NCBI RefSeq assembly: GCF_055900595.2
Contig: NZ_CM148325.1
DNA: 64,000 bases
Direction: 5' to 3' (one strand)
Shown here: positions 29,530 through 47,163 of the stretch, piece after piece
Position numbering within the stretch: position 1 is the stretch's first letter
Layout of the letters: the number at the start of each line of letters is the position of its first letter
Made by a program: the position numbers and the translations under genes
Notes under the pieces: generated by a model
The model's database searches: none
Seen by the model: the letters and a program-made list of their open reading frames with translations, nothing else
What the model was told of the DNA's origin: nothing

Positions 29530-29713
29530 CTCTTTCACTCCATCCGCGATGAACCATAAGAACGTCGTTGACGATGGCGTGCATTTTCCCGTCTTTATCA
29601 TCAACGTATTTTCTGACCGTACCGCGACTACATTTCAGTCTGCGTGCTACTTCTGTCTGGTTTCCGTATGCTTCAACGAGCATGTCTGGAATGGTTTTTA
29701 CTGAGAACGTCAT
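29507..29713 (-). CDS. ninH: NinH
   Basis: 68 aa with HTH-like [20 protein letters not shown]; lambda nin synteny. Confidence 0.85.
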
Positions 29714-30315: not shown

Positions 30316-30478
30316 CGTCTTCTTCCTCGTACATTGAGCTATTCGGATCGCTCATCAGTTCTGCGCAGCAGTGCTCACACACGTGAACTTCCAGCACATG
30401 CAGCTTCTGACCGCAGTTAGCGCACGTTAAAGCCCGCTCGACGCTTTGTTGTTCGTAACTTCGATTTGGGTCAATCAC
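30308..30478 (-). CDS. ninF: NinF
   Basis: Not in the ORF track (56 aa). GTG at 30478 overlaps the ninE stop. Reads [56 protein letters not shown]. Confidence 0.65.
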
Positions 30479-30657
30479 CTTGTTTTCCTCGCACGTTCTC
30501 TAAGCCACCGGATATCCCACAGGTGAGCCGTGTAGTTGAAGGTTTTTACGTCAGATTCTTTCGGGATTGGCTTGCGTTTATTTCTGGAGCGTTTCGTTGG
30601 AAGGTATTTGCAGTTTTCGCAGATTATGTCGGTGATACTTCGTCGCTGTCTCGCCAC
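30475..30657 (-). CDS. ninE: NinE
   Basis: 60 aa, GTG start, [29 protein letters not shown]... Confidence 0.8.
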
Positions 30658-30797
30658 ACGTCCTCCTTTTCCTGCGGTAGTGGTAACACCCCTGTTGGTG
30701 TTCTTTCACGCCGGAGACACCATCGATTCCAGTCAGGTTGATTTGGTCGGAAGCGGTTATCTTCTTTGCATTCACCGCACCGATAACATCGCATCAT
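30624..30797 (-). CDS. ninD: NinD
   Basis: 57 aa from [16 protein letters not shown]; its ATG overlaps the ninC stop (ATGA). Confidence 0.7.
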
Positions 30798-31666
30798 GCA
30801 GCTTCCCTCCCGAAGTCGAAATAAAGCTGCCCTCCAAATATTTCGCATGACTCAGAACAAGAGCCGGTATCGAATCTTTTAGCTCGTACCATGTCCTGAT
30901 ACAGGGCTTGATAATCATTTTCTGAATACATTTTCGCGATACCATCCAGCGACATTCTTCCTCGGTACATAATCTCCTTTGGTGTTTCCCGATGTCCGTC
31001 ACGCACATGCGATCCCGTGATGACCTCATTAAAAACACGCTGCAATCCCTCCTCATCTTTACAGGCAAGTCCGATTTTTTGCGTTGATTTTTTAATGCAG
31101 AATATGCAGTTACCGAGATGTTCCGGTATTTGCAAATCGAATGGTTGTTGCTTCCACCATGCGAGGATATCTTCCTTCTCAAAGTCTGACAGTTCAGCAA
31201 GATATCTGATTCCAGGCTTTGGCTTTAGCCGCTTCGGTTCATCAGCTCTGATGCCAATCCACGTGGTGTAATTCCCTCGCCCGAAATGGTCATCACAGTA
31301 TTTGGTGAAGGGAACGAGTTTTAATCTGTCAGTGCAGAACGCGCCGCCGACGTATGGAGTGCCATATTTCTTTACCATATCGATAAATGGCTTCAGAACA
31401 GGCATTTTCGTCTGAATATCCTTTGGTTCCCATACCGTATAACCATTTGACTGTCCAAGCTCTGGGTTGATATCAACCTGCAATACAGTGAGCGGTATAT
31501 CCCAGAACTTCACAACTTCGCGGATAAACCGATATGTCATCGGGTGTTCACAACCTGTATCCATGAAAACGTAATGCACGTCTTCACCTGCCTGTCGCTT
31601 TTGCTCCATTAGCCAGAGCAAATATGCTGACGTCCTGCCACCGGAGAAACTAACGACATTTATCAT
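30794..31666 (-). CDS. ninC: NinC (PAPS-reductase-like)
   Basis: 290 aa from [24 protein letters not shown] (SGGxxS PP-loop); its ATG overlaps the ninB stop. Confidence 0.92.
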
Positions 31667-32103
31667 GCAGCCCTGTCTCCCCATCTTGCTTTCCACTCCA
31701 GAGCCAGTCGCGCTTCGTCTGACCACTTAACGCCACGCTCTGTACCAAATGCCTGTATAAGCTCTAATAGCTCCGCAAATTCGCTTACACGCATCCTGCT
31801 GGTTGACTGGCCTATTACCACAAAGCCATTCCCGGCAAGGTTAGGAACAACGTCCTGCTGCTTTAATGCTGCTGTAAAAACGCACTTCCAGCTTTCTGCA
31901 TCCAGCCAGCGACCATGCCATTCAACCTGACGCGAGACGTCACCAAGGCAAGCCCAAAGTTTCCGATTTTGGTCTAAGCTGCGGTTACGTTCCTGAATGG
32001 TTACTACGATTGGTTTGGTTGGGTCTGGAAGGATTTGCTGTACTGCGTGAATAGCGTTTTGCTGATGTGCTGGAGATCGAATTTCAAAGGTCAGTTTTTT
32101 CAT
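31663..32103 (-). CDS. ninB: NinB (Orf) recombination mediator
   Basis: 146 aa, MKKLTFEIRSPAHQQNAIHAVQQILPDPTKPIVVTIQERNRSLDQN... Confidence 0.93.
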   Translation of the reverse strand: MKKLTFEIRSPAHQQNAIHAVQQILPDPTKPIVVTIQERNRSLDQNRKLWACLGDVSRQVEWHGRWLDAESWKCVFTAALKQQDVVPNLAGNGFVVIGQSTSRMRVSEFAELLELIQAFGTERGVKWSDEARLALEWKARWGDRAA

Positions 32104-32296
32104 GACTTCCCTCTCTAACAGATTTCAGGTTATTCCACTCCGTTACCGCACTGCGATAATTCGCGGCCGCCACAGCAGCGTGGTTAGCGCAGTAGATTTG
32201 GCACCCGTTCTCCATGTCGAATATTGTCGGTGATTTTCCGCATTTACATTTTTTGGCACGCGGTGCGTCTGAACACATTCCGTTAACGGTGTCCAT
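32084..32296 (-). CDS. Small Cys-rich protein, tentatively Lar-family (restriction-alleviation-like) zinc ribbon
   Basis: 70 aa. KCKCG...C.IYC followed by SAVTEWNNL, resembling the Lar-family ending A..AWN. Occupies the lambda ren slot. Confidence 0.4.
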   Translation of the reverse strand: MDTVNGMCSDAPRAKKCKCGKSPTIFDMENGCQIYCANHAAVAAANYRSAVTEWNNLKSVREGSHEKTDL

Positions 32297-32322
32297 TAGG
32301 ATCCCCCTAGTTCTTAATCCAA

Positions 32323-32351
32323 TAAAAAAGGGCTACTGTGTAAATAGCCCC
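32323..32351 (-). terminator. Intrinsic terminator after primase-helicase (tR2-like position)
   Basis: Minus strand reads GGGCTA-TTTACACAG-TAGCCC then TTTTTTATT. Confidence 0.65.
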
Positions 32352-32381
32352 TGTTATTAGCCCAGTGATGTAGATGGTCAT

Positions 32382-34262
32382 TTAATACTCCGTCACGTTT
32401 TCCTGTCGCCACGCCTCGTCATATTCCGATTTCGGCATATTGGCGATGTAGCTATATGGCGATCCTGATTCAAGTTGCAGGAACTGGTGCGATTGCTCGT
32501 CAAGGAACAACGGGACACCACCTTCCCAACCTTCGCCGTTACGTTGTTTTTCAAGCATCAAAACAGATGCCGGAGATGCCAGTAGCTGTTCGTCCTTCTC
32601 TGACATCTTTTCACCACTCTGAACTCTCTGTAACGCTCTCTCGCGAGCCTTGTTACGCCAGATGATGAAAAGGTTGTCTGTCAGGTCTGTTATCGCTCCA
32701 GAGCCTTTTACGTCCATTTTCCCGGTTGGTTTTTCTTCGCTGTCTCCTTTTCGCGAGTGAGTAACGAGAATGACGTGGGAGTTTGTTTTGTTTTTGAAGT
32801 CGCAAATCGAGTCAACAAACGCCTTCTGCCCGTTATAGTCATCGTCGCCTATGCCACATTTCATCAGGCTGTCGATGATGAATAACTGGATCCCGTATCG
32901 GCGGCGAGCGTAGTCGAATATTTCGATCAGCCTGTCGGCTTTCGCCGTTCCGGTCAGGCCAAACACCCAGAGTCTTTCGTCATAAAATTTAAATGCAGAG
33001 TCAATTTCCAGCACTGGCGGCATCTTGCAGCACGTTGCCTGACGGGTAAGGCGCTTAAGGAGAATACCAGGCTTCAGCTCAAGTGACGCGATGCACGTCT
33101 TCACACCCTGACGCATTGCCTCAAGTGCCATATGCCCGACAACCTCCGTTTTTCCGTGACCGTTCACACCATTGACCAGCGTCAACTCGGCCTCACGGAA
33201 CTGGAATTTATCTGCCAGAGATTCCCACGGTGGATTAAACAGATACTGCTGCTTGCCGTAGAAAGCGTTGATAGTGTCCTGGTAAAACTCTCGCGCGCTG
33301 TAGAGTTCTTCAGGATCGAAGTAGGATGCCGTGCCAATGTACTGCCAGATTTCATCCTCGGTAACACCGTTCATCAGGCATTCGTTGATGTCTTTGTACG
33401 GCAGAGTAACAAGACGGCAACGATGTTCACCGAGTCGGCTTGCGATTTCCCTTGCGGCTTCACGACCAACATCATCAACGTCCATCGAGATGAATATTTC
33501 CTCAAACCTGTCGAGGTTGTGATACTCAAACTCAATCCACTGCTGCTTAGCGCCTTTCCCGCCACCAAACGGCACGGATAACGCCGAGATGCCGTATTGC
33601 GCATAGCTCATACAGTCAATTTCGCCTTCGCAAAGTACAACAGCCCTCACGCCAGCGTCCAGAGCCTGCCATCCGAACAGACAAGGTTCGCAATCACCTT
33701 CTGCCATAATGACTTTCTTCCCGTCCGGGCGCTCAGTGCTGATTCGCTTGACCTGCAACAACTCACCATCGCGTTTGTACGGAATCACCAGAGCATCCAG
33801 TTCCCGCTCTCCATTCCACACCTTGCCGCTGACAACCTCGTATCGCTTTACGATTTCTGGCGATATGCCACGCGATTGCAGGTACTCAAGATGGGATTCT
33901 GTTCTGGTAACGTAGCGGGCTATTTTCTTGCGATCAGGTCTGGAGAATTTCTTCTCACGTTTGGCATCGAAATGGTGATCGTCATCCTTGATACCGAGAA
34001 ATGCTTTCGCTTCCTGCATAGCCTGATGCAGGTTAATTCCACGACATGCCATCCACAAATCAAGCATGTCACCGCCGTCTCCCTCAGCGAAATCAGCCCA
34101 TTTTTTCTTGCCGCTAAGATTGACCTTAAGGCTGTTTCCCTTGTCACCGTTGACGTTACCGGCAACCCACTCATGCCCCTCTTTCTTGCCGTTTGGCAAC
34201 AGGTGCGGAGCCACCCTGTCAACCTGCGCCCAAAGCAGGTCGCTAAGTTCACTTGGCGTCAT
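32382..34262 (-). CDS. Fused primase (Toprim) / DnaB-like replicative helicase
   Basis: 626 aa. Central ...VVLCEGEIDCMS... is a Toprim-like acidic motif. C-terminal LVNGVNGHGKT is Walker A, with ...LFIIDSLMK as Walker B. Replaces lambda P. Confidence 0.8.
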   Translation of the reverse strand: MTPSELSDLLWAQVDRVAPHLLPNGKKEGHEWVAGNVNGDKGNSLKVNLSGKKKWADFAEGDGGDMLDLWMACRGINLHQAMQEAKAFLGIKDDDHHFDAKREKKFSRPDRKKIARYVTRTESHLEYLQSRGISPEIVKRYEVVSGKVWNGERELDALVIPYKRDGELLQVKRISTERPDGKKVIMAEGDCEPCLFGWQALDAGVRAVVLCEGEIDCMSYAQYGISALSVPFGGGKGAKQQWIEFEYHNLDRFEEIFISMDVDDVGREAAREIASRLGEHRCRLVTLPYKDINECLMNGVTEDEIWQYIGTASYFDPEELYSAREFYQDTINAFYGKQQYLFNPPWESLADKFQFREAELTLVNGVNGHGKTEVVGHMALEAMRQGVKTCIASLELKPGILLKRLTRQATCCKMPPVLEIDSAFKFYDERLWVFGLTGTAKADRLIEIFDYARRRYGIQLFIIDSLMKCGIGDDDYNGQKAFVDSICDFKNKTNSHVILVTHSRKGDSEEKPTGKMDVKGSGAITDLTDNLFIIWRNKARERALQRVQSGEKMSEKDEQLLASPASVLMLEKQRNGEGWEGGVPLFLDEQSHQFLQLESGSPYSYIANMPKSEYDEAWRQENVTEY

Positions 34263-34366
34263 GATTCCCTCAGATTGAGATTTTTAAACCAGAAATCGAC
34301 AAATGAAATACTTAACCAGCCGTGGTTATAACCAGCGACCAGTAGCGATTTGATTTTTGATTTCAT
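34259..34366 (-). CDS. Possible 35-aa hydrophobic peptide between the O-like gene and the primase-helicase gene
   Basis: AGGTGA-N3-ATG. MKSKIKSLLVAGYNHGWLSISFVDFWFKNLNLRES. Its stop overlaps the primase ATG (ATGA). Below the ORF-track cutoff. Confidence 0.3.
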   Translation of the reverse strand: MKSKIKSLLVAGYNHGWLSISFVDFWFKNLNLRES

Positions 34367-34369
34367 GGT

Positions 34370-35230
34370 TCACCTGTCGAAAAACACGTAGCCAGTTTTC
34401 GATACGGTGATTGCGGATGATGGTTTGGATTGTGGTTGAATGGTTTCTGGCTTTTCGTCGTTCCAGCGTTGACCGTTCAGGTAGCTCGATGGTAACAACC
34501 TGTCGAATCCGAACTGCTTACCATTCCTGCATGCGATGTCTTCTGCCAACATCGTGGCAAACTCGCTTGCCGTACCCCTGGTAGTTTTACGCCATTCCCT
34601 GAACTGTGTTCTGAATGCCGAAGCTGCGTTTTTCTTCCCGGCTTTCCGCATGCCTGCACACCAGAATATTTCCTCGAATGCCTTGTCGGTTTCTTCGTGA
34701 CGGTCAGGTGATTTTTCACACTCCGTCCGAACACTTTCGGACATAGTGTTTTTATTATTTCTTTTTTCTTTTGTAATAGTTTCTTTTGTGTGTCCCTGTT
34801 TTGGTGACAGCGCTGTCACCATTTTGGTGACACTTTTTGTCACCAATGCAGTGACATTATCACCAGAGTAGTGACACCCTTCGATTTGCCATTCCTCGAT
34901 GTTCTTGTTAGGCCCGATTTGCTGGCCTTCGCGAAGGATAACCTTCATCGCGATAAGCTCATTCTTGGCCTTGTTTACCTTCTGTCTTGGCAGCCTGGTA
35001 ATTTGAGCTAACTGACTATCAGAGATGCGATCCATCTTTTTACCGTAGCCGTATGTTTTACGGCATATGGCGTGGGCAACCTTGCTCTGATTTTTCGTTA
35101 AATCTGCGCCGATAAGCTCTTCATACAGGGCATTTGCAAGACGGGTATAACCATCTTCAACTTCTGCCACACGACGCTCCACAGGCCGTTGTGAAGGCCT
35201 TAAATGTGTTACGGTTGCAAGATTACTCAT
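34370..35230 (-). CDS. Replication initiator (lambda O-like N-terminal domain)
   Basis: 286 aa. ...[48 protein letters not shown]... is typical of the phage O N-domain. Contains an internal iteron array. Confidence 0.85.
34748..34880. repeat. ori: Replication origin: AT-rich tract plus four GGTGAC/GTCACC iterons inside the O-like gene
   Basis: TGGTGACAGCGCTGTCACC (34802-34820), TGGTGACACTTTTTGTCACCA (34825-34845), GTGACATTATCACC (34850-34863), GTGACACC (34870-34877). These are preceded by a T-rich tract at 34748-34800. Confidence 0.75.
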
Positions 35231-35369
35231 GACCTTTCTCCTTCTGCATCAGCTTCACTTTTTCCAACTCAGCCCGGAATCGACCAGGCTGCTTGAAGCT
35301 GGACAGGAAGCGATCACGTAGTATGTGTTTGTGAATTTTGTCCTGGTAAGGACTGAGTTGTTTTGTCAT
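35223..35369 (-). CDS. Small 48-aa protein between cII and the O-like gene
   Basis: ATG 35369, [48 protein letters not shown]. Its 3' end overlaps the O-like start. Below the ORF-track cutoff. Confidence 0.4.
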
Positions 35370-35377
35370 AATTACTC

Positions 35378-35446
35378 CTGTGGATTGATCCAGTCTTTCT
35401 ACATCAGGCCTCGAAGAATTCGCCGTTCTTCGGGGCTTTTTCTTTT
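35378..35446 (+). ncRNA. oop: OOP-like antisense RNA overlapping the 3' end of cII
   Basis: Plus-strand terminator GCCTCGAAGAA-TTCGCCG-TTCTTCGGGGC plus TTTTTCTTTT (35408-35446). Candidate promoter TGGTAA-17-CATAAT (35344-35372). Geometry as for lambda OOP. Confidence 0.5.
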
Positions 35447-35682
35447 GTCAGCATTCTGGCTACTTTCTTAGCCAGTTCCGCCAACTCCTCGTCTTCAACA
35501 CCCCATTCAAGAACAGCCAGAAGCATTCCCATTTTTGGGATGAAGCTGTCTTTCCATCGTGAAATTTGCGATTCATTAATCCCTAACGCGTCGGCCACCT
35601 TTCGCTGACCACGTACAGCAATTCGATTTAGGATGTTGCTTGTAATTGCATTCGCTTTCTTGCGAGTACTTGTAAGTTGCAT
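35404..35682 (-). CDS. cII: CII-type lysogeny-establishment activator
   Basis: 92 aa from [44 protein letters not shown]...LLAVLEWGV parallels lambda CII / P22 C1. The lambda-like leader is upstream. Confidence 0.85.
35636..35649 (+). promoter_or_regulatory. CII box of PRE (TTGC-N6-TTGC)
   Basis: TTGCTTGTAATTGC on the plus strand inside the 5' end of cII, oriented toward cro/cI. Confidence 0.65.
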
Positions 35683-35761
35683 ATGTAAGTATTTCCTTAG
35701 ATAACAATTGATTGAATGTATGCAAATAAATGCATACACCATAGGTGTGGTTTAATTTGAT

Positions 35762-35793
35762 GCCCTTTTTCAGGGCTGGGATGTGTAAGAGCG
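35762..35793 (-). promoter_or_regulatory. nutR: nutR (boxA CGCTCTTAC, boxB GCCCTGAAAAAGGGC)
   Basis: Minus strand reads CGCTCTTACACATCCCAGCCCTGAAAAAGGGC, downstream of cro. Confidence 0.85.
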
Positions 35794-35801
35794 GGAATGT
35801 C

Positions 35802-37154
<1,353 letters not shown>

Positions 37155-37203
37155 TCCCCACCTCAATCTCGATAACCAAAAACAAACTATTTTTCATTTA
37201 AAA

Positions 37204-37290
37204 ACAATGGAGTTTGTTTTTCACGCCCCTTTTTACAATATTTCTTGTTTACAACATACAATCTTTCTTGTAATTTTAAGCCATCAGCAG
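37204..37290. promoter_or_regulatory. OL1-OL3 operators with PL (434-type)
   Basis: ACAATGGAGTTTGT (37204-17), ACAATATTTCTTGT (37235-48), ACAATCTTTCTTGT (37258-71), followed by the lambda-like leader ATCAGCAGGACGCACTGACC. Confidence 0.88.
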
Positions 37291-37313
37291 GACGCACTGA
37301 CCACCATGAAGGT

Positions 37314-37346
37314 GAGGCTCTTAAAAATTAAGCCCTGAAGAAGGGC
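37314..37346 (+). promoter_or_regulatory. nutL: nutL (boxA GCTCTTAA, boxB GCCCTGAAGAAGGGC)
   Basis: GGCTCTTAAAAATTAAGCCCTGAAGAAGGGC. Confidence 0.85.
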
Positions 37347-37544
37347 AGCATTCAAAGCAGAAGGCTTTGGGATTGGATGAATGAGCAGGCTGATGCTCGA
37401 CCAATGTATAAACAGCGCTCATGGCAAGCAGTAACCAATCTGCGCCTCAAGACAGCGTCACTGGTAGTGCGGGCGCTCTAACCAGTAAGCCGGGGTTCAG
37501 CGCCGGCCATCCAATCACCAAAGCTAACTGACAGGAGAATCCAG

Positions 37545-37877
37545 ATGGATGCACAAACACGCCGCCGCGAACGTCGCGCAGAGAAACAGGCTCAATGGAA
37601 AGCAGCAAATCCCCTGTTGGTTGGGGTAAGCGCAAAACCAGTTAACCGCCCTATTCTCTCGCTGAATCGCAAACCGAAATCACGAGTAGAAAGCGCACTG
37701 AATCCGATAGACCTTACGGTGCTGGCTGAATACTACGAACAGATTGAAAGCAACCTGCAACGTATTGAGCGCAAGAATCAGCGCACATGGTACAGCAAGC
37801 CACGGAGTGAAATGGGTGTGACATGCTCAGGCCGCCAGAAGCAACGCGGAAAATCAATTCCGGCTTATTACGATTGA
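37545..37877 (+). CDS. N: Antiterminator N (lambda-type)
   Basis: 110 aa. MDAQTRRRERRAEKQAQWKAANPLLVGVSAKPVNRPILSLNRKPKSRVESALNPIDLTVLAEY... contains the Arg-rich motif. The C-terminal ~25 aa diverge from lambda. Confidence 0.93.
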   Translation: MDAQTRRRERRAEKQAQWKAANPLLVGVSAKPVNRPILSLNRKPKSRVESALNPIDLTVLAEYYEQIESNLQRIERKNQRTWYSKPRSEMGVTCSGRQKQRGKSIPAYYD

Positions 37878-37885
37878 GGTGAGAT

Positions 37886-38137
37886 ATGGAATTTCATGAA
37901 AGTGCGATTTGTGATTTTCGCGCTAACGCAAATTCAGTAAAACCACAGCCAATTGCAGTTCTTTTTAAAACAATGGGAGCGTGGGCTGTTTTATGCTTCG
38001 CCTCTGACGACACTGATGCAAGAATGGCAATAGGCCAAGAGATGGAGATGGACCCGACAAACGATGAATTCATAATTTATGGCGCTCCATCTAATTACTT
38101 ACTTGATACCTGCAACATTTACAACAAGGCTGCCTGA
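37886..38137 (+). CDS. Hypothetical 83-aa acidic protein (first gene after N)
   Basis: Strong SD GAGGTGAG; its stop lies in the loop of its own terminator. Confidence 0.6.
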   Translation: MEFHESAICDFRANANSVKPQPIAVLFKTMGAWAVLCFASDDTDARMAIGQEMEMDPTNDEFIIYGAPSNYLLDTCNIYNKAA

Positions 38138-38156
38138 TGGTGGCCTTTATTTTTTT
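38128..38156 (+). terminator. Intrinsic terminator
   Basis: GGCTGCC-TGAT-GGTGGCC then TTTATTTTTTT. Confidence 0.65.
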
Positions 38157-38196
38157 GCCGTAAATAATTTCATGATTATTACAATCAAGGTGATAT

Positions 38197-38385
38197 ATGA
38201 AACGTAAATTTGAAATTTGGTTGGATTCCGGAGCAAACATTCACTCTTGCAAAAAGACAGTTGTAACACTCGATGATCTTGGCTTATCCGAGAATGAGTG
38301 GAATGAAATGGATCAGGACGAAAAAGACGAAAACATGCGTGATGTAGCATTTGAAACGCTTGATTGGGGATGGAAGGAAATTTAA
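38197..38385 (+). CDS. Hypothetical 62-aa strongly acidic protein
   Basis: SD AAGGTGA. 16 D/E versus 8 K/R; sequence ...SENEWNEMDQDEKDENMRD... Confidence 0.6.
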   Translation: MKRKFEIWLDSGANIHSCKKTVVTLDDLGLSENEWNEMDQDEKDENMRDVAFETLDWGWKEI

Positions 38386-38390
38386 GTGAT

Positions 38391-38415
38391 GGCCGCATAG
38401 TCGGCCTTTATTTTT
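38391..38415 (+). terminator. Intrinsic terminator
   Basis: GGCCG-CATAGT-CGGCC then TTTATTTTT. Confidence 0.65.
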
Positions 38416-38444
38416 GGCATAAACAACAGAATAAACACAGCACT

Positions 38445-38558
38445 GTGTATTCATTCCAACGAGTGAATACACGGAGCAATGTCGCTCGTAACTAAACAGG
38501 AGCCGACTTGTTCTGATTATTGGAAATCTTCTTTGCCCTCCGATGTGAGGGCTTTTTT
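38445..38558 (+). ncRNA. Candidate small RNA unit (9-bp hairpin plus strong terminator), ORF-free
   Basis: GTGTATTCA-N10-TGAATACAC (38445-38472) and GCCCTC-CGATGT-GAGGGC plus TTTTTT (38535-38558). I could not place a convincing promoter. Confidence 0.25.
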
Positions 38559-38624
38559 ATATGCATACCAATAACGCTTCACTCGAGGCGTTTTCGTTAT
38601 GCAATCAAACAGAAGGAGCATCCT

Positions 38625-38795
38625 ATGCAACAGTTCGCTATTGCAGGGGCGGCATCGGTTCGCCCTTTCAACCCGATTTTATCGGTACAGCATTCACGAA
38701 AAAATATTTTAACCGGAGCAGACTTTAAACAACCAAGAATGAAAAGTTTGCTCGAAAAGCTTTGGGATATTTTGAAACAACAAGGCCGTCCATGA
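38625..38795 (+). CDS. Hypothetical 56-aa protein
   Basis: AAGGAG-N6-ATG at 38625; MQQFAIAGAASVRPFNPILSVQH... Confidence 0.45.
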   Translation: MQQFAIAGAASVRPFNPILSVQHSRKNILTGADFKQPRMKSLLEKLWDILKQQGRP

Positions 38796-38950
38796 GTTTT
38801 ACGGATAACTGGTCAGACGAAGAATTCATTCGTCAGATGAAAGAATTAATCGGTAACGAAGGAGATATTCATGTCACTTGCAACCACAGTGAAGGAGAGC
38901 AAGTTACAGAGACGCATGTACACGCAGAAAGCTCTCTGGTATCGCCATAA
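38792..38950 (+). CDS. Hypothetical 52-aa acidic protein
   Basis: ATG overlaps the preceding stop (ATGA); MSFTDNWSDEEFIRQMKELIGNEGD... Confidence 0.4.
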   Translation: MSFTDNWSDEEFIRQMKELIGNEGDIHVTCNHSEGEQVTETHVHAESSLVSP

Positions 38951-39041
38951 TGGCGACCGCGAAGGAATGCGGGTATGCCTTAATTTGTCCCGAGTCGAAG
39001 TATTAAATCAGCGTTATTTCCTTGGGCCATGTCCATTCTGA
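38871..39041 (+). CDS. Alternative-frame 56-aa ORF overlapping the previous one
   Basis: GGAGATATTC-ATG; MSLATTVKESKLQRRMYTQKALWYRHNGDREGMRVCLNLSRVEVLNQRYFLGPCPF. Ends 9 bp before the annealase ATG. Confidence 0.35.
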   Translation: MSLATTVKESKLQRRMYTQKALWYRHNGDREGMRVCLNLSRVEVLNQRYFLGPCPF

Positions 39042-39049
39042 GGTGATTT

Positions 39050-39757
39050 ATGGATTTGAATAAATTCGATGAGCCATTCAGCCCTGAAGATATCGAATGG
39101 CGAATACAGCAAAGCGGTAAAACACGCGATGGCAAAGTGTGGGCTATGGTGCTGGCTTATGTCACGAACCGGGCAATCATGAAACGCCTGGACGATGTTT
39201 GCGGCAAAGCAGGATGGCGCAATGAATACCGCGATATTCCCAACAACGGCGGAGTTGAATGCGGCATATCAATCAAGATTGATTCCGAATGGGTAACCAA
39301 ATGGGATGCCGCTGAAAACACGCAGGTAGAAGCCGTCAAAGGTGGTCGTTCCGGTGCAATGAAGCGCGCTGCCGTTCAGTGGGGAATCGGTCGGTATCTG
39401 TATAACCTTGAGGAAGGTTTTGCACAAACATCTCTCGATAAAAAGCAGGGATGGCACAGGGCAAAACTCAAGGATGGAACAGGATTTTACTGGCTCCCTC
39501 CATCGCTGCCGGGATGGGCAATCCCAGCATCAGATAACAAACCATCACCAGAAAATACCAACCAGAAATCTCCATCGGTTGACTGCGAACAAATCCTGAA
39601 AGACTTCAGCGATTATGCGTCAACAGAAACTGACAAGAAAAAACTCATCGAGCGTTATCAGCGTGACTGGCAATTAATGGCTGGCAACGAGGAGGCGCAG
39701 GCTAAATGCGTTCAGGTAATGAACATCAGAGTTAACGAACTAAAACAGGCGGCATAA
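39050..39757 (+). CDS. Single-strand annealing protein: Rad52/Rad22-type N-domain with P22 Erf-like C-terminal tail
   Basis: 235 aa. ...GGRSGAMKRAAVQWGIGRYLYNL is a Rad52-family motif. C-terminal ...TETDKKKLIERYQRDWQL...KCVQVMNIRVNELKQAA parallels the P22 Erf C-terminus. Confidence 0.75.
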   Translation: MDLNKFDEPFSPEDIEWRIQQSGKTRDGKVWAMVLAYVTNRAIMKRLDDVCGKAGWRNEYRDIPNNGGVECGISIKIDSEWVTKWDAAENTQVEAVKGGRSGAMKRAAVQWGIGRYLYNLEEGFAQTSLDKKQGWHRAKLKDGTGFYWLPPSLPGWAIPASDNKPSPENTNQKSPSVDCEQILKDFSDYASTETDKKKLIERYQRDWQLMAGNEEAQAKCVQVMNIRVNELKQAA

Positions 39758-40225
39758 ATGTCTCACTTGGACGGAATTATTAAAAGATTCGAGTCCAGCT
39801 ACAAAGTTAATGAAACAACAGGTTGCTGGGAGTCTACCTATTCAAAAAACAAAGGAGGATACACAAAATTTGTAGCCTTTGGCGTAACAATGCTTTCTCA
39901 TCGGGTTGCTTTTGAGCTTTATCACTCCCCCATTCCATCTGGGAAGATGGTTTGCCACAAATGCGATAACCCATGCTGCGTTAATCCTGAACATCTCTTT
40001 TTAGGTAGCGCGCAAGAAAACATGGACGACAAGATAGCAAAAGGAAGGCATCGTGGAGCCAAGAAAGGTCATGCTCATCATGGTGCAAAATTAACAGAGT
40101 GGCAGGTTATAGAAATTAGGAAAAGACTCTCTGAAAAAGAGAGTCAGTACAAGATAGCAAAAGACATGGGTGTATCTCAATCAATTATAAGCAACATAAA
40201 AACTGGCAAGAGGTGGAGCAAATGA
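39758..40225 (+). CDS. HNH homing-type endonuclease with C-terminal HTH
   Basis: 155 aa. ...[38 protein letters not shown]... (HNH_3-like) and C-terminal [24 protein letters not shown]. Confidence 0.8.
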
Positions 40226-40728
40226 GTTCTCGCGGGATAAATAAGGTGATTATTCTTGGTCGGGTAGGACAAGACCCGGAAGTTCGATACTCACCATCAG
40301 GAACAGCGTTCGCTAACCTGACAATAGCCACGTCAGAACAATGGCGAGATAAAAATACTGGCGAGCAAAAGGAATTGACTGAATGGCATCGTGTTGCTGT
40401 ATCCGGGAAACTGGCTGAGGTCGTGGGGCAGTATGTGAAAAAAGGTGATCAGATTTATTTCGAGGGAATGCTGAGAACCAGAAAGTGGAAAGACCAGTCA
40501 GGGCAAGACCGTTACACAACCGAGGTTCATGTCGGAATTAATGGTGTGATGCAAATGCTTGGCGGCATTGGCGACAGCAAACAACAAGCATCCAGCAGGC
40601 AATCACAGAAGCCACAGCAGCAATCATCACCAGCACAACACAACGAACCTCCGATGGATTTTGACGACGATATACCCTTTGCACCAGTAACTCTCCCCTT
40701 CCCTCGTCACGCTATTCACGCAATTTAA
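40222..40728 (+). CDS. ssb: Single-stranded DNA-binding protein
   Basis: [23 protein letters not shown]... OB fold and acidic tail [11 protein letters not shown] overlaps the HNH stop. Confidence 0.92.
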
Positions 40729-40741
40729 TCAGGAGAAAATC

Positions 40742-41035
40742 ATGCCAGCGCCTCAGTATGGTGCGGATGACCCGCGCCGCTGTTCCGGCAATTCCGTATC
40801 GGAGGTGCTGGATAAATTCAGAAAAAACTACGACCTGATAATGTCGCTACCGCAGGAAACGAAAGAGGAAAAGGAATTTCGCCATTGTATATGGCTTGCA
40901 GAGAAAGAAGAACGCGAGCGAATTTACCAGACATCAATCCGACCATTCCGCAAAGCCACATATACCCACTTCCCTGAAATTGACCCGCGCCTGCGTAATT
41001 ACCGCTCACGCTATGGCGCTATCAGTAATGACTGA
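40742..41035 (+). CDS. Hypothetical early protein (97 aa)
   Basis: ORF track; tightly packed in the PL operon. Confidence 0.55.
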
Positions 41036-41045
41036 GGAATTTACC

Positions 41046-41210
41046 ATGAGAGGACTTGCATACAATCCCGGCATTCTTCCGGCAGAAATGATTATTCGCC
41101 AACGCGTAAAGCCAATGCCATCGAGAGAGGAATTGCTTAAGAGAAATTCTTTTCCATCAGTGTATCAAAACAAATATCTGAATGCAATGTGGCGGAGTGG
41201 GAAGAAATGA
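41046..41210 (+). CDS. Hypothetical early protein (54 aa)
   Basis: GAGGAA-N6-ATG; [34 protein letters not shown]... Confidence 0.45.
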
Positions 41211-41626
41211 AACAAATGTCACTAATTGAGATGGATGGATTTCTGAAAGGTAAATGCATCCCAAGTGATTTAAAGGTTAACGAAACAAACGCTGATTATC
41301 TGGTGCGTAAATTTGCTGAAGCGGAGGCCAAGTGCGCGGCGCTTGCGGCGGAGAATGAGCTGGCTCGTAAGGCAGTTCAGGCATTCTGCGATGTTGTTGG
41401 CGACAACACCGAGGTTATCGCTGAGGTGGTTGGGCGAGATGGCGTTCTGGTTATTTTGGAGGCCATGAAGGCAACAGGAAATATGCCAGCCACCGATGCT
41501 TTTCTGGCTGAAGTACGGGCGCAGGGTGTTGAATTGTTGCGCGAGCATCCTGCTATCCAGATTTGCTCTTTAACGCACGTATGCGACGAGTTCGCCGCCC
41601 AGCTTCGTCAGGGGGAAGCGGTATGA
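41207..41626 (+). CDS. Hypothetical early protein (139 aa, Ead/Ea22-like region)
   Basis: ATG overlaps the preceding stop (ATGA); coiled-coil [20 protein letters not shown]. Confidence 0.55.
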
Positions 41627-41940
41627 GCATAGTTGATGATTCACATCTTACAGACGAAGTGGTTAACGCCGCTTTCGAAGGTACCAATTTCGGGCGCACT
41701 GATTTCCGCACCATTCTGGCAGAAACAGTTATGAAGCGTGCTGCTGGCTATCACTCTGGCTACACGGCAACGACTATCTGTATTCGCCTGGGATTGCTTG
41801 GCAAACACGATCGCCCGACAAAACTCGGCCTGACCTTCGCTTTCCATCACTACTACAGGCCATGCGTTCGCGAAGCGCTGATTTCGCATAACAGCCTTGA
41901 AGTATGGGCAAAACTTGGAGCACAGGAGTCCGCCAAATGA
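41623..41940 (+). CDS. Hypothetical early protein (105 aa)
   Basis: ATGA overlap with the upstream gene; [20 protein letters not shown]... Confidence 0.55.
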   Translation: MSIVDDSHLTDEVVNAAFEGTNFGRTDFRTILAETVMKRAAGYHSGYTATTICIRLGLLGKHDRPTKLGLTFAFHHYYRPCVREALISHNSLEVWAKLGAQESAK

Positions 41941-42224
41941 GCAACATCAACAAACAGGCGCTGATTGCAAAAATCAAAAAGCAGGCCGAAAGCTTCGACA
42001 CAGTGGTGTTGAGAGAGGATGAAGCTAACGCGCTGCTGGATGAGCTGGAAGCAGCAGAGAAGCGGATTGCTGAACTGGAAGCGCGGGAAATACTGCTCCC
42101 GGAACGTAGCAGCATGCTTCATCGAACAGATTTTCACGATGATTACCAAACGGTAATGGCATACAAAGTTTCTGAAGTCATCGATGCAATCCGCGCCGCT
42201 GGCATTCGTATCAAAGGAGAGTGA
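41937..42224 (+). CDS. Hypothetical early coiled-coil protein (95 aa)
   Basis: ATGA overlap; MSNINKQALIAKIKKQAESFDTVVLREDEANALLDELEAAEKRIAELEA... Confidence 0.55.
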   Translation: MSNINKQALIAKIKKQAESFDTVVLREDEANALLDELEAAEKRIAELEAREILLPERSSMLHRTDFHDDYQTVMAYKVSEVIDAIRAAGIRIKGE

Positions 42225-42225
42225 T

Positions 42226-42447
42226 ATGGCTAACTCATTACTTGAAACCTGCAACAACTGGCAGATTCAGAGGGCGGAGATTTTATCTCGCAATCCAGAT
42301 ATGGCAATGACAATTGATAATCTGGACACGCTAATTGAACGGACCGTGCGTTCTGCAATTGATATAGCACATCGAGTGGATTGGGATTTCAGAGAAGCGG
42401 AGCGACTTGCTAAAGAGCAGGCGAAAGCAGCGGGTAAAGGAGAGTGA
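42226..42447 (+). CDS. Hypothetical early protein (73 aa)
   Basis: GGAGAGTGATATG context; MANSLLETCNNWQIQRAEIL... Confidence 0.5.
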   Translation: MANSLLETCNNWQIQRAEILSRNPDMAMTIDNLDTLIERTVRSAIDIAHRVDWDFREAERLAKEQAKAAGKGE

Positions 42448-42448
42448 T

Positions 42449-42646
42449 ATGGATAAAAACACCACTGCTTACTGGAGTCTTTCACTTGATACCGAATGTC
42501 CCAAATGCGGCCACAATTTCGATCTGCTTTGCGATGCTGATTTCTGGGAATTTTCTGGAGCAAAACAGGCATGTGAAGAAATAAAAGGTTACGAAACATG
42601 CTGCCCAGAATGTAACCATGAATTTAAAACAGATTTTGTGTATTGA
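42449..42646 (+). CDS. Small zinc-ribbon protein (65 aa)
   Basis: Same GGAGAGTGATATG context as the previous gene; CPKCG...CCPECN. Confidence 0.55.
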   Translation: MDKNTTAYWSLSLDTECPKCGHNFDLLCDADFWEFSGAKQACEEIKGYETCCPECNHEFKTDFVY

Positions 42647-42656
42647 GGCATAACGA

Positions 42657-43857
42657 ATGACCACTTTTACTAAAGAACAATTAATAGAGATAATTAAGCG
42701 CAATATAACGGTTATGGATCGTTATCCTGATTTAGTAACTGCACAAATGGATCTGGAAGTATACAAAATTGCGCTGGCATCACTGGAAGCAGAACCAGTT
42801 GCTTATATTTTCAAACATCCGGCCGGGAAATTATTCTGGGCTTTAACGGATGAAAGCAATAAAGAGCAACCGGACGTTATTCCTGTTTATGCTGACTCAC
42901 CTGCGCCGGTTGTGCCGGATGAAATAGACGTAAACGATGTACCAAGGGCGGTGACATATTTCAAGACACACAGAGATTGTTACGCAGATGGCTGGAACGC
43001 CTGCCGCGCCGCCATGCTTCAGTCCGGAAACTTTCGGGAAAACAAGAATTCGTCAACCAATAATTTTCGGGAAATCGCGGAAACGTCAACCAACTATCCG
43101 GTAATTCCTAGTGAGGTGTTGTCCGCAATCCTGAAGGTTGCCAAGATTCGTGCCGATTTCGATGATTTTGACGGTGACAGGCGAGGTATCGGTGATTGTC
43201 TGGATGAGGCTGAGCAAGAGCTTATCGTTACCATTAACAAATATGCCAGTCAGTTGGCAGCAGAACCGATAGCGACTAATGACGTTCGAGAGCAAACAGC
43301 CGTTCCGCCAGTTCCTGTAATACAGGCTGATGTCGCGCAGGCAATTGAAAAACTCAAACGGAAATTAGTGGAATGCAATCGCTATAACTACTGCGCAGAT
43401 GCAGTTAAGGGCGTTGAGTATGCCTGCCACGCTGCCACGCTGCCACGCTGCCATGCTTCAGGGTAGCCAACCTGTAAGCCAAACTTACAAGTTTCCAGTT
43501 AATACACCTTGCCAGGATGCGCCAGCCCATATCTGGCTGCAAACAGCTGGAGTATGGCCAGAAGATGGCGAGTTAAGCGAATTAACGTGGTGCAGCCACA
43601 ATCAGCACCATGATGACACGCTATATGTTCGAGCTGACTTGGTAAATGGCAATTCTCCGGTAACTCCGGATGGTTGGATAAGCTGTAGTGATCGAATGCC
43701 AAACGAAGAAGATGTTTTGGTTTATTGCTCAGACACTAAAGAGCAGATGGTAGGGTTTCACAAAGGTAAAGGGTTATTTCAATTCTTTTACATGAATGGT
43801 GTTGAGGGGGTATGTGAGCCGTCACACTGGATGCCGCTACCAGAGCCTCCACTTTGA
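42657..43857 (+). pseudogene. Ea22/Ead-like plus DUF551-type early gene split into two ORFs (42657-43466, 43399-43857) by an octamer expansion
   Basis: ORF1 ends ...VEYACHAATLPRCHASG*. ORF2 reads ...HAAMLQGSQP... Removing two of the three CTGCCACG units joins them as ...YACHAAMLQGSQP... The C-terminus HWMPLPEPP is DUF551-like. Confidence 0.55.
43424..43455. repeat. Tandem octamer (CTGCCACG x3 plus CTGCCATG)
   Basis: Read directly: CTGCCACG CTGCCACG CTGCCACG CTGCCATG. Confidence 0.95.
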
Positions 43858-43953
43858 AAGCGAAGCTTATACATATCTTTTACATCAGCAATCTATTGTT
43901 AATCTCCAATCAATGTTACGTTGTCATCTCACTCATGCTTTGGAGGTAGTGAT

Positions 43954-44133
43954 ATGTCTTGTCCAAAATGCGGTTCTGGAAATATTGCAAAAGAAAAAAC
44001 AATGCGTGGATGGTCTGGTGATTATGTGTGCTGCGATTGCGGATACAACGACTCTAAAGACGCATTTGGAGAGCGTGGTAAAAACGAGTTTGTCAAAATT
44101 AATAAAGATCGCGAAGGCAACGGAAAAAGCTAA
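43954..44133 (+). CDS. Small zinc-ribbon protein (59 aa)
   Basis: GGAGGTAGTGATATG; MSCPKCGSGNIAKEKTMRGWSGDYVCCDCGY... Confidence 0.55.
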   Translation: MSCPKCGSGNIAKEKTMRGWSGDYVCCDCGYNDSKDAFGERGKNEFVKINKDREGNGKS

Positions 44134-44196
44134 TTTATTTATTCATATATGAAAACAATGTAACCAATATTCGAATTGAAGAACTGAAAGAACACC

Positions 44197-44220
44197 AAGC
44201 CGCCTGATGGCGGTTTTTTC
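44197..44220 (+). terminator. Intrinsic terminator upstream of xis
   Basis: CCGCC-TGAT-GGCGG then TTTTTTC. Confidence 0.6.
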
Positions 44221-44234
44221 TTGCGTGTAATTGC
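44221..44234 (+). promoter_or_regulatory. CII box of PI (int promoter)
   Basis: TTGCGTGTAATTGC (TTGC-N6-TTGC), just upstream of and overlapping the xis start region, as in lambda. Confidence 0.7.
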
Positions 44235-44246
44235 GGAGACTTTGCG

Positions 44247-44465
44247 ATGTACTTGACACTTCAGGAGTGGAACGCACGCCAGCGACGCCCAAGAAGCCTT
44301 GAAACAGTTCGTCGATGGGTACGCGAGTGCAGGATATTCCCTCCTCCGGTTAAGGATGGAAGAGAGTATCTGTTCCACGAATCAGCGGTAAAGGTTGACT
44401 TAAATCGACCAGTAACAGGTAGCCTTTTGAAGAGGATCAGAAATGGGAAGAAGGCGAAGTCATGA
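44247..44465 (+). CDS. xis: Excisionase (lambda Xis)
   Basis: 72 aa, MYLTLQEWNARQRRPRSLETVRRWVRECRIFPPPVKDGREYLFHESAVKVDLNRP... Confidence 0.95.
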   Translation: MYLTLQEWNARQRRPRSLETVRRWVRECRIFPPPVKDGREYLFHESAVKVDLNRPVTGSLLKRIRNGKKAKS

Positions 44466-45513
44466 GCGCCGGGATTTACCCCCTAACCTTTATATAAGAA
44501 ACAATGGATATTACTGCTACAGGGACCCAAGGACGGGTAAAGAGTTTGGATTAGGCAGAGACAGGCGAATCGCAATCACTGAAGCCATACAGGCCAACAT
44601 TGAGTTATTTTCAGGACACAAACACAAGCCTCTGACAGCGAGAATCAACAGTGATAATTCCGTTACGTTACATTCATGGCTTGATCGCTACGAAAAAATC
44701 CTGGCCAGCAGAGGAATCAAGCAGAAGACACTCATAAATTACATGAGCAAAATTAAAGCAATAAGGAGGGGTCTGCCTGATGCTCCACTTGAAGACATCA
44801 CCACAAAAGAAATTGCGGCAATGCTCAATGGATACATAGACGAGGGCAAGGCGGCGTCAGCCAAGTTAATCAGATCAACACTGAGCGATGGATTCCGAGA
44901 GGCAATAGCTGAAGGCCATATAACAACAAACCCTGTCGCTGCCACTCGCGCAGCAAAATCAGAGGTAAGGAGATCAAGACTTACGGCTGACGAATACCTG
45001 AAAATTTATCAAGCAGCAGAATCATCACCATGTTGGCTCAGACTTGCAATGGAACTGGCTGTTGTTACCGGGCAACGAGTTGGTGATTTATGCGAAATGA
45101 AGTGGTCTGATATCGTAGATGGATATCTTTATGTCGAGCAAAGCAAAACAGGCGTAAAAATTGCCATCCCAACAGCATTGCATGTTGATGCTCTCGGAAT
45201 ATCAATGAAGGAAACACTTGATAAATGCAAAGAGATTCTTGGCGGAGAAACCATAATTGCATCTACTCGTCGCGAACCGCTTTCATCCGGCACAGTATCA
45301 AGGTATTTTATGCGCGCACGAAAAGCATCAGGTCTTTCCTTCGAAGGGGATCCGCCTACCTTTCACGAGTTGCGCAGTTTGTCTGCAAGACTCTATGAGA
45401 AGCAGATAAGCGATAAGTTTGCTCAACATCTTCTCGGGCATAAGTCGGACACCATGGCATCACAGTATCGTGATGACAGAGGCAGGGAGTGGGACAAAAT
45501 TGAAATCAAATAA
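44443..45513 (+). CDS. int: Tyrosine integrase (lambda Int)
   Basis: 356 aa, MGRRRSHERRDLPPNLYIRNNGYYCYRDPRTGKEFGLGRDRRIAITEA...HELRSLSARLY...LLGHKSDTMASQY. Confidence 0.96.
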   Translation: MGRRRSHERRDLPPNLYIRNNGYYCYRDPRTGKEFGLGRDRRIAITEAIQANIELFSGHKHKPLTARINSDNSVTLHSWLDRYEKILASRGIKQKTLINYMSKIKAIRRGLPDAPLEDITTKEIAAMLNGYIDEGKAASAKLIRSTLSDGFREAIAEGHITTNPVAATRAAKSEVRRSRLTADEYLKIYQAAESSPCWLRLAMELAVVTGQRVGDLCEMKWSDIVDGYLYVEQSKTGVKIAIPTALHVDALGISMKETLDKCKEILGGETIIASTRREPLSSGTVSRYFMRARKASGLSFEGDPPTFHELRSLSARLYEKQISDKFAQHLLGHKSDTMASQYRDDRGREWDKIEIK

Positions 45514-45601
45514 TGATTTTATTTTGACTGATAGTGACCTGTTCGTTGCAACAAATTGATAAGCAATGCTTTTTTATAATGCCAACTTAGTATAAAAAAG
45601 C
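45514..45601. other. attL-type junction (B-O-P'): lambda-like P' arm plus att core
   Basis: AATGATTTTATTTTGACTGATAGTGACCTGTTCGTTGCAACAAATTGATAAGCAATGCTTTTTTATAATGCCAAC, then core TTAGTATAAAAAAGC (45587-45601), then host AGGCTTCA. Confidence 0.9.
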
Positions 45602-45647
45602 AGGCTTCAACGGATTCATTTTTCTATTTCATAGCCCGGAGCAACCT

Positions 45648-46931
45648 GTGAACACATTTTCAGTTTCCCGTCTGGCGCTGGCATTGGCTTTTGGCGTGAC
45701 GCTGACCGCCTGTAGCTCAACACCGCCCGATCAACGTCCTTCTGATCAAACCGCGCCTGGTACCTCTTCTCGCCCGATTCTGTCGGCAAAAGAAGCGCAG
45801 AATTTCGATGCTCAACACTATTTTGCGTCCCTGACGCCAGGTGCTGCAGCGTGGAATCCTTCCCCGATTACTCTGCCTGCGCAACCTGACTTTGTTGTCG
45901 GCCCGGCGGGTACTCCGGGTGTAACGCATACCACGATTCAGGCGGCGGTAGATGCGGCAATTATCAAGCGCACCAACAAGCGCCAGTATATTGCCGTGAT
46001 GCCTGGTGAGTATCAGGGAACGGTGTATGTCCCTGCTGCTCCGGGTGGAATTACTCTGTACGGTACAGGTGAAAAACCGATTGATGTGAAGATTGGGCTT
46101 TCCCTTGATGGGAGCATGAGCCCTGCCGACTGGCGTCACGACGTCAACCCGCGCGGCAAATATATGCCAGGTAAACCAGCGTGGTATATGTACGATAGCT
46201 GCCAGAGCAAACGCAGCGACAGTATCGGCGTTCTGTGTTCTGCGGTCTTCTGGTCACAAAACAACGGCCTGCAACTGCAAAACCTGACCATCGAAAACAC
46301 GCTGGGTGATAGCGTAGATGCGGGTAACCATCCGGCGGTGGCACTGCGTACTGATGGCGACAAAGTGCAGATCAATAACGTCAACATTCTCGGTCGTCAG
46401 AATACATTCTTTGTCACCAACAGTGGTGTGCAAAACCGTCTGGAAACCAACCGTCAGCCGCGTACTCTGGTGACCAACAGTTACATTGAAGGGGATGTGG
46501 ATATCGTTTCTGGTCGCGGCGCAGTGGTGTTCGATAATACCGAATTCCGCGTGGTGAACTCACGTACTCAGCAAGAAGCGTATGTGTTTGCACCGGCTAC
46601 GCTGTCTAACATCTATTACGGTTTCCTCGCCGTAAACAGCCGCTTCAATGCTTCCGGTGATGGCGTGGCGCAACTGGGCCGCTCGCTGGATGTTGATGCC
46701 AATACCAACGGTCAGGTGGTGATCCGTGATAGCGCCATCAACGAAGGTTTTAACACGGCTAAACCGTGGGCCGATGCGGTGATTTCCAATCGCCCGTTTG
46801 CGGGTAATACTGGCAACGTTGATGATAACGACGAAGTACAGCGTAATCTGAATGACACTAACTACAACCGCATGTGGGAATACAATAACCGCGGCGTGGG
46901 TAGCAAAGTGGTTGCAGAGGCGAAGAAGTAA
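45648..46931 (+). CDS. ybhC: Pectinesterase-family outer-membrane lipoprotein / acyl-CoA thioesterase YbhC
   Basis: 427 aa, GTG start, lipobox LTACSS, parallel beta-helix family; flanks attB(lambda) on the gal side. Confidence 0.9.
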   Translation: MNTFSVSRLALALAFGVTLTACSSTPPDQRPSDQTAPGTSSRPILSAKEAQNFDAQHYFASLTPGAAAWNPSPITLPAQPDFVVGPAGTPGVTHTTIQAAVDAAIIKRTNKRQYIAVMPGEYQGTVYVPAAPGGITLYGTGEKPIDVKIGLSLDGSMSPADWRHDVNPRGKYMPGKPAWYMYDSCQSKRSDSIGVLCSAVFWSQNNGLQLQNLTIENTLGDSVDAGNHPAVALRTDGDKVQINNVNILGRQNTFFVTNSGVQNRLETNRQPRTLVTNSYIEGDVDIVSGRGAVVFDNTEFRVVNSRTQQEAYVFAPATLSNIYYGFLAVNSRFNASGDGVAQLGRSLDVDANTNGQVVIRDSAINEGFNTAKPWADAVISNRPFAGNTGNVDDNDEVQRNLNDTNYNRMWEYNNRGVGSKVVAEAKK

Positions 46932-46947
46932 AAGCGATTAACTTTTT

Positions 46948-47150
<203 letters not shown>

Positions 47151-47163
47151 CACATGGCGCTTT

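Follow-up and report, generated by a model that had tools for sequence, protein, structure and literature searches.

A probably slippage-prone octanucleotide repeat toggles the reading frame of a mosaic DUF551-ending gene in Escherichia coli prophages and P1-like phage-plasmids

Contingency loci of Haemophilus and Neisseria carry tetra- to heptanucleotide repeats within their open reading frames. Their tracts are long and their switching rates high, and the genes serve mostly surface or restriction-modification functions. To our knowledge, very few simple-sequence switches exist in E. coli and its phages, and neuO in CUS-3 is the textbook case. The neuO gene of this E. coli K1 prophage contains the heptanucleotide AAGACTC in 2–93 copies and is ON only when the copy number is a multiple of three; its switching was measured to be of high frequency, and the phenotype is O-acetylation of the capsule with a dose-dependent enzyme activity (PMC3046976). 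The Ea22-type genes of the exo-xis region are known as mosaic genes with portable C-terminal domains, DUF551 among them (PMC10834534, PMC7093339).

Here, we analyse an octanucleotide tract in a DUF551-ending prophage gene. The window, that is, the whole stretch of DNA under study, comprises 64,000 nucleotides of contig NZ_CM148325.1 (RefSeq assembly GCF_055900595.2). The closest analogue of the locus is neuO of CUS-3. Both are accessory genes of E. coli prophages with an intragenic repeat, of which only every third copy number gives a full-length protein; in both the copy number varies among isolates, by what is accepted or proposed to be slipped-strand mispairing. However, the two repeat sequences are unrelated. 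The repeat is translated as RLKTQDS in neuO and as TLPRCHAA in the DUF551 gene, and the neuO tract follows the start codon at a distance of 2 nt, whereas the octamer tract is located mid-gene at a module joint, with 2 units as the dominant form. The Haemophilus and Neisseria loci follow the same frame-toggling logic and also have OFF stops near the tract, but the octamer tract is short and usually minimal. With the Ea22/EaA/DUF551 genes of the exo-xis region, our gene shares the place upstream of xis-int and the mosaic architecture, although its protein lacks the PF13935 signature. In the literature consulted on these mosaic genes, repeat-length polymorphism or frameshift alleles are not described, and literature searches returned nothing on this locus, whether for the TLPRCHAA peptide, the repeat DNA itself or phase-variable 8-bp repeats in phages.

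The tract occupies positions 43424–43455 of the plus strand and consists of CTGCCACG three times, followed by CTGCCATG. This is a 4-unit allele, and it is out of frame. TRF reports an array at 43424–43457 with a period of 8, 4.2 copies and 96% matches, and together with direct reading it confirms the three perfect octamers and the fourth, variant unit named in the preliminary description. No further array with a period of at least 7 and at least 3 copies was detected by TRF in the 64-kb window. The period-8 self-match run extends over 22 consecutive positions and ends near 43444; other runs at periods 4–12 in the window reach at most 9, and the maximum among 200 first-order Markov resamplings was 14. 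The tract lies inside a coding region, as do many SSR/VNTR tracts of phase-variable loci.

Perfect and much longer (CTGCCACG)n arrays were observed in unrelated genomes, namely Haematobacter missouriensis (L026), Carnimonas sp. (L013) and three IMG/VR contigs (L006–L008). The IMG/VR contigs hold 8–9 units, which are unrelated to the DUF551 gene, and the Haematobacter contig holds 19 matches to the CTGCCACG pattern at 24-bp spacing, far more units than the IMG/VR contigs. A scan for (CTGCCACG)n in one genome per species gave 51 loci, every one from an unrelated taxon and outside this gene family. Likewise, a scan of IMG/VR for at least 3 units of CTGCCACG gave unrelated arrays only.

Two open reading frames meet at the tract. 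ORF1 (42657–43466, plus strand, 269 aa) is preceded by a GAGG Shine-Dalgarno sequence and contains the N-terminal (phrog_5117) and middle (phrog_14306) modules. Truncated by the frameshift, it ends in ...YACHAATLPRCHASG* at the stop codon TAG 43464–43466, 9 nt past the tract. ORF2 (43399–43857, plus strand, 152 aa), taken from the ORF list and a Pfam search, runs in the +1 frame and contains the linker module and the C-terminal DUF551 domain (aa 92–151). Its sequence recurs unchanged at the C-terminal end of the intact 402-aa protein of sister prophages. The exact ORF1 protein is on record only in GCA_050484865.1 and in Logan SRR22575581.

By rebuilding the locus in silico with 1–9 units, we obtained one continuous ORF with 2, 5 and 8 units, of 394, 402 and 410 aa, respectively. 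The 2-unit allele reads ...YACHAAMLQGSQPVSQ... through the joint. With 1, 4 or 7 units the product ends in ...CHASG*, and with 3, 6 or 9 units it ends in ...TLPCFRVANL*, so that both OFF frames of these in-silico alleles meet a stop codon at most 25 nt past the tract. Among in-frame alleles, every three added units insert TLPRCHAA. Because the unit is 8 bp long, only copy numbers of 2 modulo 3 (2, 5, 8) yield the full-length protein of about 394–412 aa. Natural alleles obey the same rule: 2 units give 396 aa in a P1-like plasmid, 5 units give 402 aa in the E. coli EC332 prophage, and the products of 3, 4 and 9 units are truncated. The preliminary description had placed the two ORFs at the same coordinates and in different frames, had expected the removal of two units to join them into about 395 aa, and had proposed that changes in repeat number toggle the frame. 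All three statements are borne out, with 394 aa in silico and about 394–396 aa for natural 2-unit alleles. The downstream DUF551 frame is still open in all out-of-frame alleles examined, and an undamaged downstream module is consistent with recent events.

The full-length protein is composed of three recognizable parts, with residues 1–123 matching phrog_5117, residues 111–262 matching phrog_14306 and residues 342–401 matching Pfam DUF551 (67 bits). In ORF2 alone, DUF551 (PF04448) scores 69.1 bits against a cut-off of 22 (E = 6e-19, aa 92–151), and a Pfam search of ORF1 gave no family match. The gene had been introduced as an Ea22-like/DUF551 early gene. The DUF551 half of that name stands, but the Ea22 half does not, as Ead_Ea22 (PF13935) has no match at E ≤ 0.1 to ORF1, ORF2 or the fused proteins. 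A weak Ead_Ea22 remnant is found upstream, in the ORF at 41904–42224 (18.4 bits against a cut-off of 27). Homologous segments occur in phage records labelled EaA, Ea22 or DUF551. The EaA gene of phage Gally has the MLQGSQ...DUF551 segment in common with our gene at 97% DNA identity (match H206), and EaA of POCJ13, Ss-VASD and JL22 gave similar matches; this homology is partial and concerns modules only. An EaA-like, DUF551-ending mosaic gene of the exo-xis region is the more fitting description.

The PHROGs families matched are all without an assigned function. The proteins of the gene have no match among the PADLOC defence families or in a PDB sequence search, and the sole NCBIfam match, at 16.6 bits against a 360-bit cut-off, is at chance level. 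Structure prediction with AlphaFold on P0041, a 2-unit full-length homologue, and 48 homologues gave a mean pLDDT of 47.7 and a pTM of 0.27. In the predicted model of P0041, the joint sits at the end of a helix and is followed by low-confidence sequence, a model too poor to prove a linker.

Downstream of the DUF551 gene lie a small zinc-ribbon protein (43954–44133, plus strand; Lar-like by a weak match, annotated Eag), an excisionase (44247–44465, plus strand) and a lambda-type integrase (44443–45513, plus strand). With xis and int just downstream, the gene belongs to the exo-xis early-left accessory region of the prophage. In lambda biology, the pL early-left operon is silent in lysogens. A promoter and terminator scan around the gene found 6 promoter-like sites against 7.5 expected, and nothing above the shuffle expectation that would point to expression in the lysogen. 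The prophage occupies the lambda attachment site and adjoins ybhC, and the near-identical EC332 copy, with P22-like structural genes, is inserted between ybhC and ybhB/bioA. We notice that two small zinc-ribbon ORFs of the CxxC...CxxC type flank the gene, at 42449–42646 and 43954–44133; one has sub-threshold zinc-hook/TRASH matches, and the other is the weak Lar (restriction alleviation) match annotated Eag.

The tract encodes the motif C-H-A-A-M-L-Q (motif site 43436–43461). A first joint motif, C-R-A-A-M-L-Q-S-G, is read from the sequence at 43002–43028 (plus strand), between the N-terminal and middle modules, and corresponds to the upstream copy claimed in the preliminary description at about 43000–43025. 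The two sites have GCCATGCTTCAG in common, but the upstream one lacks the octamer duplication. Many phage BLAST matches end or begin exactly at the tract (query 1–138, or 137/166–272). In EaA of phage Gally, the N-terminal module runs to CRAAMLQ and passes directly into GSQPVSQ, with the middle module absent. In Upf89.5 of P7, an unrelated C-terminus follows the joint, and in Stx2 phage 86 the protein stops just after CRAAML and a separate DUF551 gene comes next. These boundaries identify C(H/R)AAMLQ as a conserved joint at which the modules of the mosaic family are exchanged, which fits the published mosaic picture (PMC10834534). The His version of the joint (TGC CAC GCT GCC ATG) contains a 7-of-8 octamer duplication and the Arg version (TGC CGC GCC GCC ATG) does not; from these codons, it appears that only the His version can seed slippage. 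On the side, loci L093, L094 and L095 together with the window suggest that a short conserved DNA linker mediates the shuffling of modules.

To count natural alleles, we used a query of 272 nt centred on the tract and retained the E. coli complete-genome records that span both flanks (n = 58). The number of units was taken from the length in exact 8-bp steps, and from the sequence for fetched records. Two units are present in 53 of the 58 records, 3 units in two, 4 units in one and 5 units in two. PLSDB plasmids have 2 units in 22 of 23 cases and 3 units in the remaining one, and a pattern scan allowing 2–5 units found 2 units in all 8 metagenome loci and all 18 IMG/VR loci (26/26). Longer in-frame and out-of-frame forms also exist: homologue P0086 is an 8-unit in-frame allele of 412 aa, and one 91-kb P1-like contig carries 9 units, the maximum tract seen. 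Altogether, natural alleles have 2, 3, 4, 5, 8 or 9 units, always in whole 8-bp steps. The added units are all perfect CTGCCACG, and the tracts are pure. The homologue family is overwhelmingly full length, that is, fused, at 390–427 aa.

Exact-sequence look-ups placed the 3-, 4-, 5- and 9-unit alleles all on an identical N-terminal backbone of 256 aa. On this backbone, the 3-unit product was found in 6–9 contigs, the 4-unit product in 2, the 5-unit product in 11–12 and the 9-unit product in 1. Four-unit alleles come from three independent assemblies (GCA_050484865.1, Logan SRR22575581 and the complete genome of strain 90-1). The 5-unit in-frame allele is combined with at least 5 different sets of N- and C-terminal modules and also occurs in Salmonella. 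Its presence in such varied module contexts shows that expanded alleles persist and spread, and it would agree as well with tract length having a functional role. The expanded alleles in the unbiased DNA census, 2 in frame and 3 out of frame, are too few to separate neutrality from selection. The comparison of copy number in homologous prophages, which the preliminary description had named as a check, thus yields 2–9 units with 2 dominant and an intact two-unit ORF. It had set against its own reading an arrangement of three units with two genes in all homologues; we find instead that 3 units are rare and most homologues are fused. Meanwhile, a second 4-unit type was observed in Logan SRR22575581 (L088, 3319–3350), where the last unit is CTGCCACG and not CTGCCATG (CACG for CATG). 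This difference is synonymous in the ORF1 frame and removes the Met codon of AAMLQ; either true variation or a mistake in assembly could explain it.

Superimposing the window on the E. coli EC332 prophage (L004/L005) revealed about 36 kb of aligned sequence, at about 7,000–28,800 and 30,560–45,700 of the window. Over this length, the two prophages differ by 2 substitutions, one swapped module and a single indel, which is one octamer unit. The host flanks differ by 25–68 mismatches per kb (3–6%). Near-identical prophages between divergent host flanks indicate that the phage entered two divergent hosts recently and that the tract changed within that short time. The host flank of the window (ybhD–ybhI) has a match of at least 99% in only 8 of 5,391 E. 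coli genomes, which places the host in a rare, divergent E. coli lineage that acquired the phage recently. The swapped module at 28,880–30,484 has no megablast match to EC332 except for a 138-nt piece, which suggests that a module of the nin/late-regulatory region was replaced.

Five independent assemblies of the same phage, including EC332, have 5 units. Outside the tract, sister loci differ from the window by one substitution over 3.4 kb (L001) or by none over 2.6–3.2 kb (L096–L099). With five near-identical 5-unit sisters, parsimony makes the 4-unit allele of the window a one-unit deletion from an in-frame parent, and most likely it is a recent loss of one unit by replication slippage. The earlier proposal of a recent inactivating duplication therefore holds in part: the frame break is most likely recent, but the expansion gives way to a probable one-unit loss from the 5-unit sister allele. 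In the P1-like group, the 9-unit and 3-unit loci differ by 3 mismatches in 2.8 kb, which suggests that tract length kept drifting after the frame had been lost. One tract change per about 2 substitutions in 36 kb would correspond, as a rough estimate, to 1e-6 per generation, well under the classical contingency loci. Put differently, and on the basis of one event, the tract would change per site roughly four orders of magnitude faster than the average base.

Taken together, the locus is probably a slippage-prone intragenic octanucleotide VNTR, a mutational hot spot that toggles the frame of an accessory gene over short evolutionary times and is nearly neutral there. We propose that it originated from a chance imperfect duplication, CTGCCACG CTGCCATG, in the DNA for the conserved C-H-A-A-M-L-Q joint of a mosaic EaA-like, DUF551-ending gene carried by lambdoid/P22-like prophages and P1-like phage-plasmids. 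Slipped-strand mispairing would then change the tract by whole units; it is favoured because tract length changes only by entire, perfect units and no impurities interrupt the tracts. Loops of more than about 4 nt are left uncorrected by E. coli mismatch repair, and the 8-nt loops of octamer slippage intermediates lie beyond its range and thus escape repair. In the window lineage, replication slippage most likely took the tract from 5 to 4 units by loss of one unit. The resulting protein is cut after its first two modules, and the intact DUF551 module in the +1 frame is left untranslated or is translated separately. We infer that the event, whether it abolished the function or split the gene, was nearly neutral for an accessory gene that stays silent in the lysogen, and that it does not reflect an evolved ON/OFF switch. 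Programmed ribosomal frameshifting was considered and rejected, as most homologues have a continuous ORF (2, 5 or 8 units) that does not need recoding; the sequence at the tract contains no homopolymer and no X XXY YYZ slippery motif.

The allelic series bears on two simpler accounts of the window allele. Short tandem repeats can be miscounted during sequencing or assembly, and the Logan contig with CACG for CATG in its last unit might be taken as a sign of this. We nevertheless regard an artefact as extremely unlikely, since the 32-bp tract lies well inside read length, the 4-unit count recurs in three independent assemblies, and the 3- and 5-unit counts recur in 9 and 12 contigs. A one-off inactivating duplication, with ordinary pseudogenization at a site without special mutability, agrees with the frameshift of the window allele and with the frequent decay of prophage accessory genes. 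It is very improbable given six tract lengths that are all multiples of 8 bp apart, several of them on identical or nearly identical backbones, in at least 3 kinds of replicon context, and a tract that is the only indel between prophages differing by 2 substitutions in about 36 kb. On these sequences, the pseudogenization account is already contradicted by the allelic series. The break might also be harmless, with the two halves working as separate proteins and the 4-unit allele representing a two-gene version whose DUF551 product starts at ATG 43420 or, by reinitiation, at ATG 43453. Stx2 phage 86 has such a two-gene arrangement in nature: its orf45 has a homologous pre-joint module ending in C-R-A-A-M-L (...CRAAMLKGDKS*) and is followed by the DUF551 protein orf44 through an ATGA overlap. 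Its stop is fixed, however, and its CRAAMLK DNA lacks the octamer repeat; it is not a product of slippage. In the window, AAGGG at 43407–43411 and ATG 43420–43422 (plus strand) form a possible ribosome-binding site and start. The anti-SD duplex of this ATG (−5.3 kcal/mol) comes close in energy to the one at the start of ORF1 (−5.6 kcal/mol), with 18% of the ATGs in the window at −4.0 or below. The ATG at 43453–43455 (plus strand), in the last repeat unit, codes for the Met of AAMLQ and is always in the DUF551 frame, without an SD-like sequence. The ORF1 stop just past the tract would permit translational coupling, and the modules of the family recombine freely. On the other hand, ATG 43420 shares the frame of the DUF551 module solely in alleles whose number of units is 1 modulo 3, such as that of the window, and the great majority of homologues are fused. 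Given the arrangement in Stx2 phage 86, a functional split in the window is possible, but we consider the two-gene reading unlikely.

The separate DUF551 genes in public annotation do not help this two-gene reading. RefSeq PGAP starts a separate 'DUF551 domain-containing protein' at the equivalent of ATG 43453 even where the ORF is continuous. On an intact 402-aa ORF (L001; 3349–3609 and 3805–4209) and an intact 396-aa ORF (L002; 3349–3609 and 3781–4191), it reports a 'partial' DUF551 pseudogene fragment and a short DUF551 CDS. We therefore discarded the RefSeq label 'DUF551 (x2)' as evidence, since such labels over intact ORFs do not signify two genes.

A true contingency locus, in which the tract is selected for high-frequency ON/OFF or fused/split switching as in neuO, has several features on its side: an intragenic repeat with a unit that is not a multiple of three, natural ON (2, 5, 8) and OFF (3, 4, 9) alleles, OFF stops close behind the tract with the downstream module intact, and a precedent in an E. 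coli prophage (PMC3046976). Yet about 90% or more of the alleles have just two imperfect units, the minimal form and one expected to be fairly stable, and the longest tract counts 9 units, whereas neuO reaches 93. Instead of long tracts with ON and OFF states both common, each collection is dominated by 2 units (53/58, 22/23 and 26/26). The gene sits in the early-left operon, whose silence in lysogens is matched by the promoter scan, and the rough rate of change is under that of classical loci. Dominance of the 2-unit allele makes a mutational hot spot in a dispensable gene likelier than an evolved contingency locus, and we regard the latter as quite unlikely.

A related idea is an incipient contingency locus common to lambdoid/P22-like prophages and P1-like phage-plasmids of E. 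coli and Salmonella, which we likewise regard as quite unlikely. If it were true, tracts of more than 2 units would toggle among the fused protein, the split pair (via ATG 43420, at 1 modulo 3) and the truncated form. They would thereby produce heritable, reversible heterogeneity in phage development, for example in the lysis-lysogeny choice or in exclusion. Among the SSR-type switches of E. coli prophages known to us, it would then stand second, after neuO alone.

In the preferred reading as a slippage hot spot, the tract is a second, independent case in nature of a prophage gene whose frame is toggled by a tandem repeat with a unit length indivisible by three. It spans two very different kinds of mobile element, integrated lambdoid/P22-like prophages and P1-like phage-plasmids. 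It further represents a microsatellite at an early stage, with a chance 7-of-8 duplication in conserved linker codons and rare expanded lineages that keep changing. As a fast-evolving marker, the tract can distinguish prophages that are otherwise identical. The analysis also exposes an annotation problem, in that RefSeq gives a pseudogene fragment and a short DUF551 CDS where the ORF is intact.

Beyond the prophage, we notice another tandem repeat in the host DNA adjoining ybhC. At 46947–47141 of the window, a 92-bp unit is present in 2.1 copies with 96% matches and is REP/BIME-like (TGCCGGATGCGGCG...). It coincides with a gap in the EC332 alignment at 46,933–47,161.
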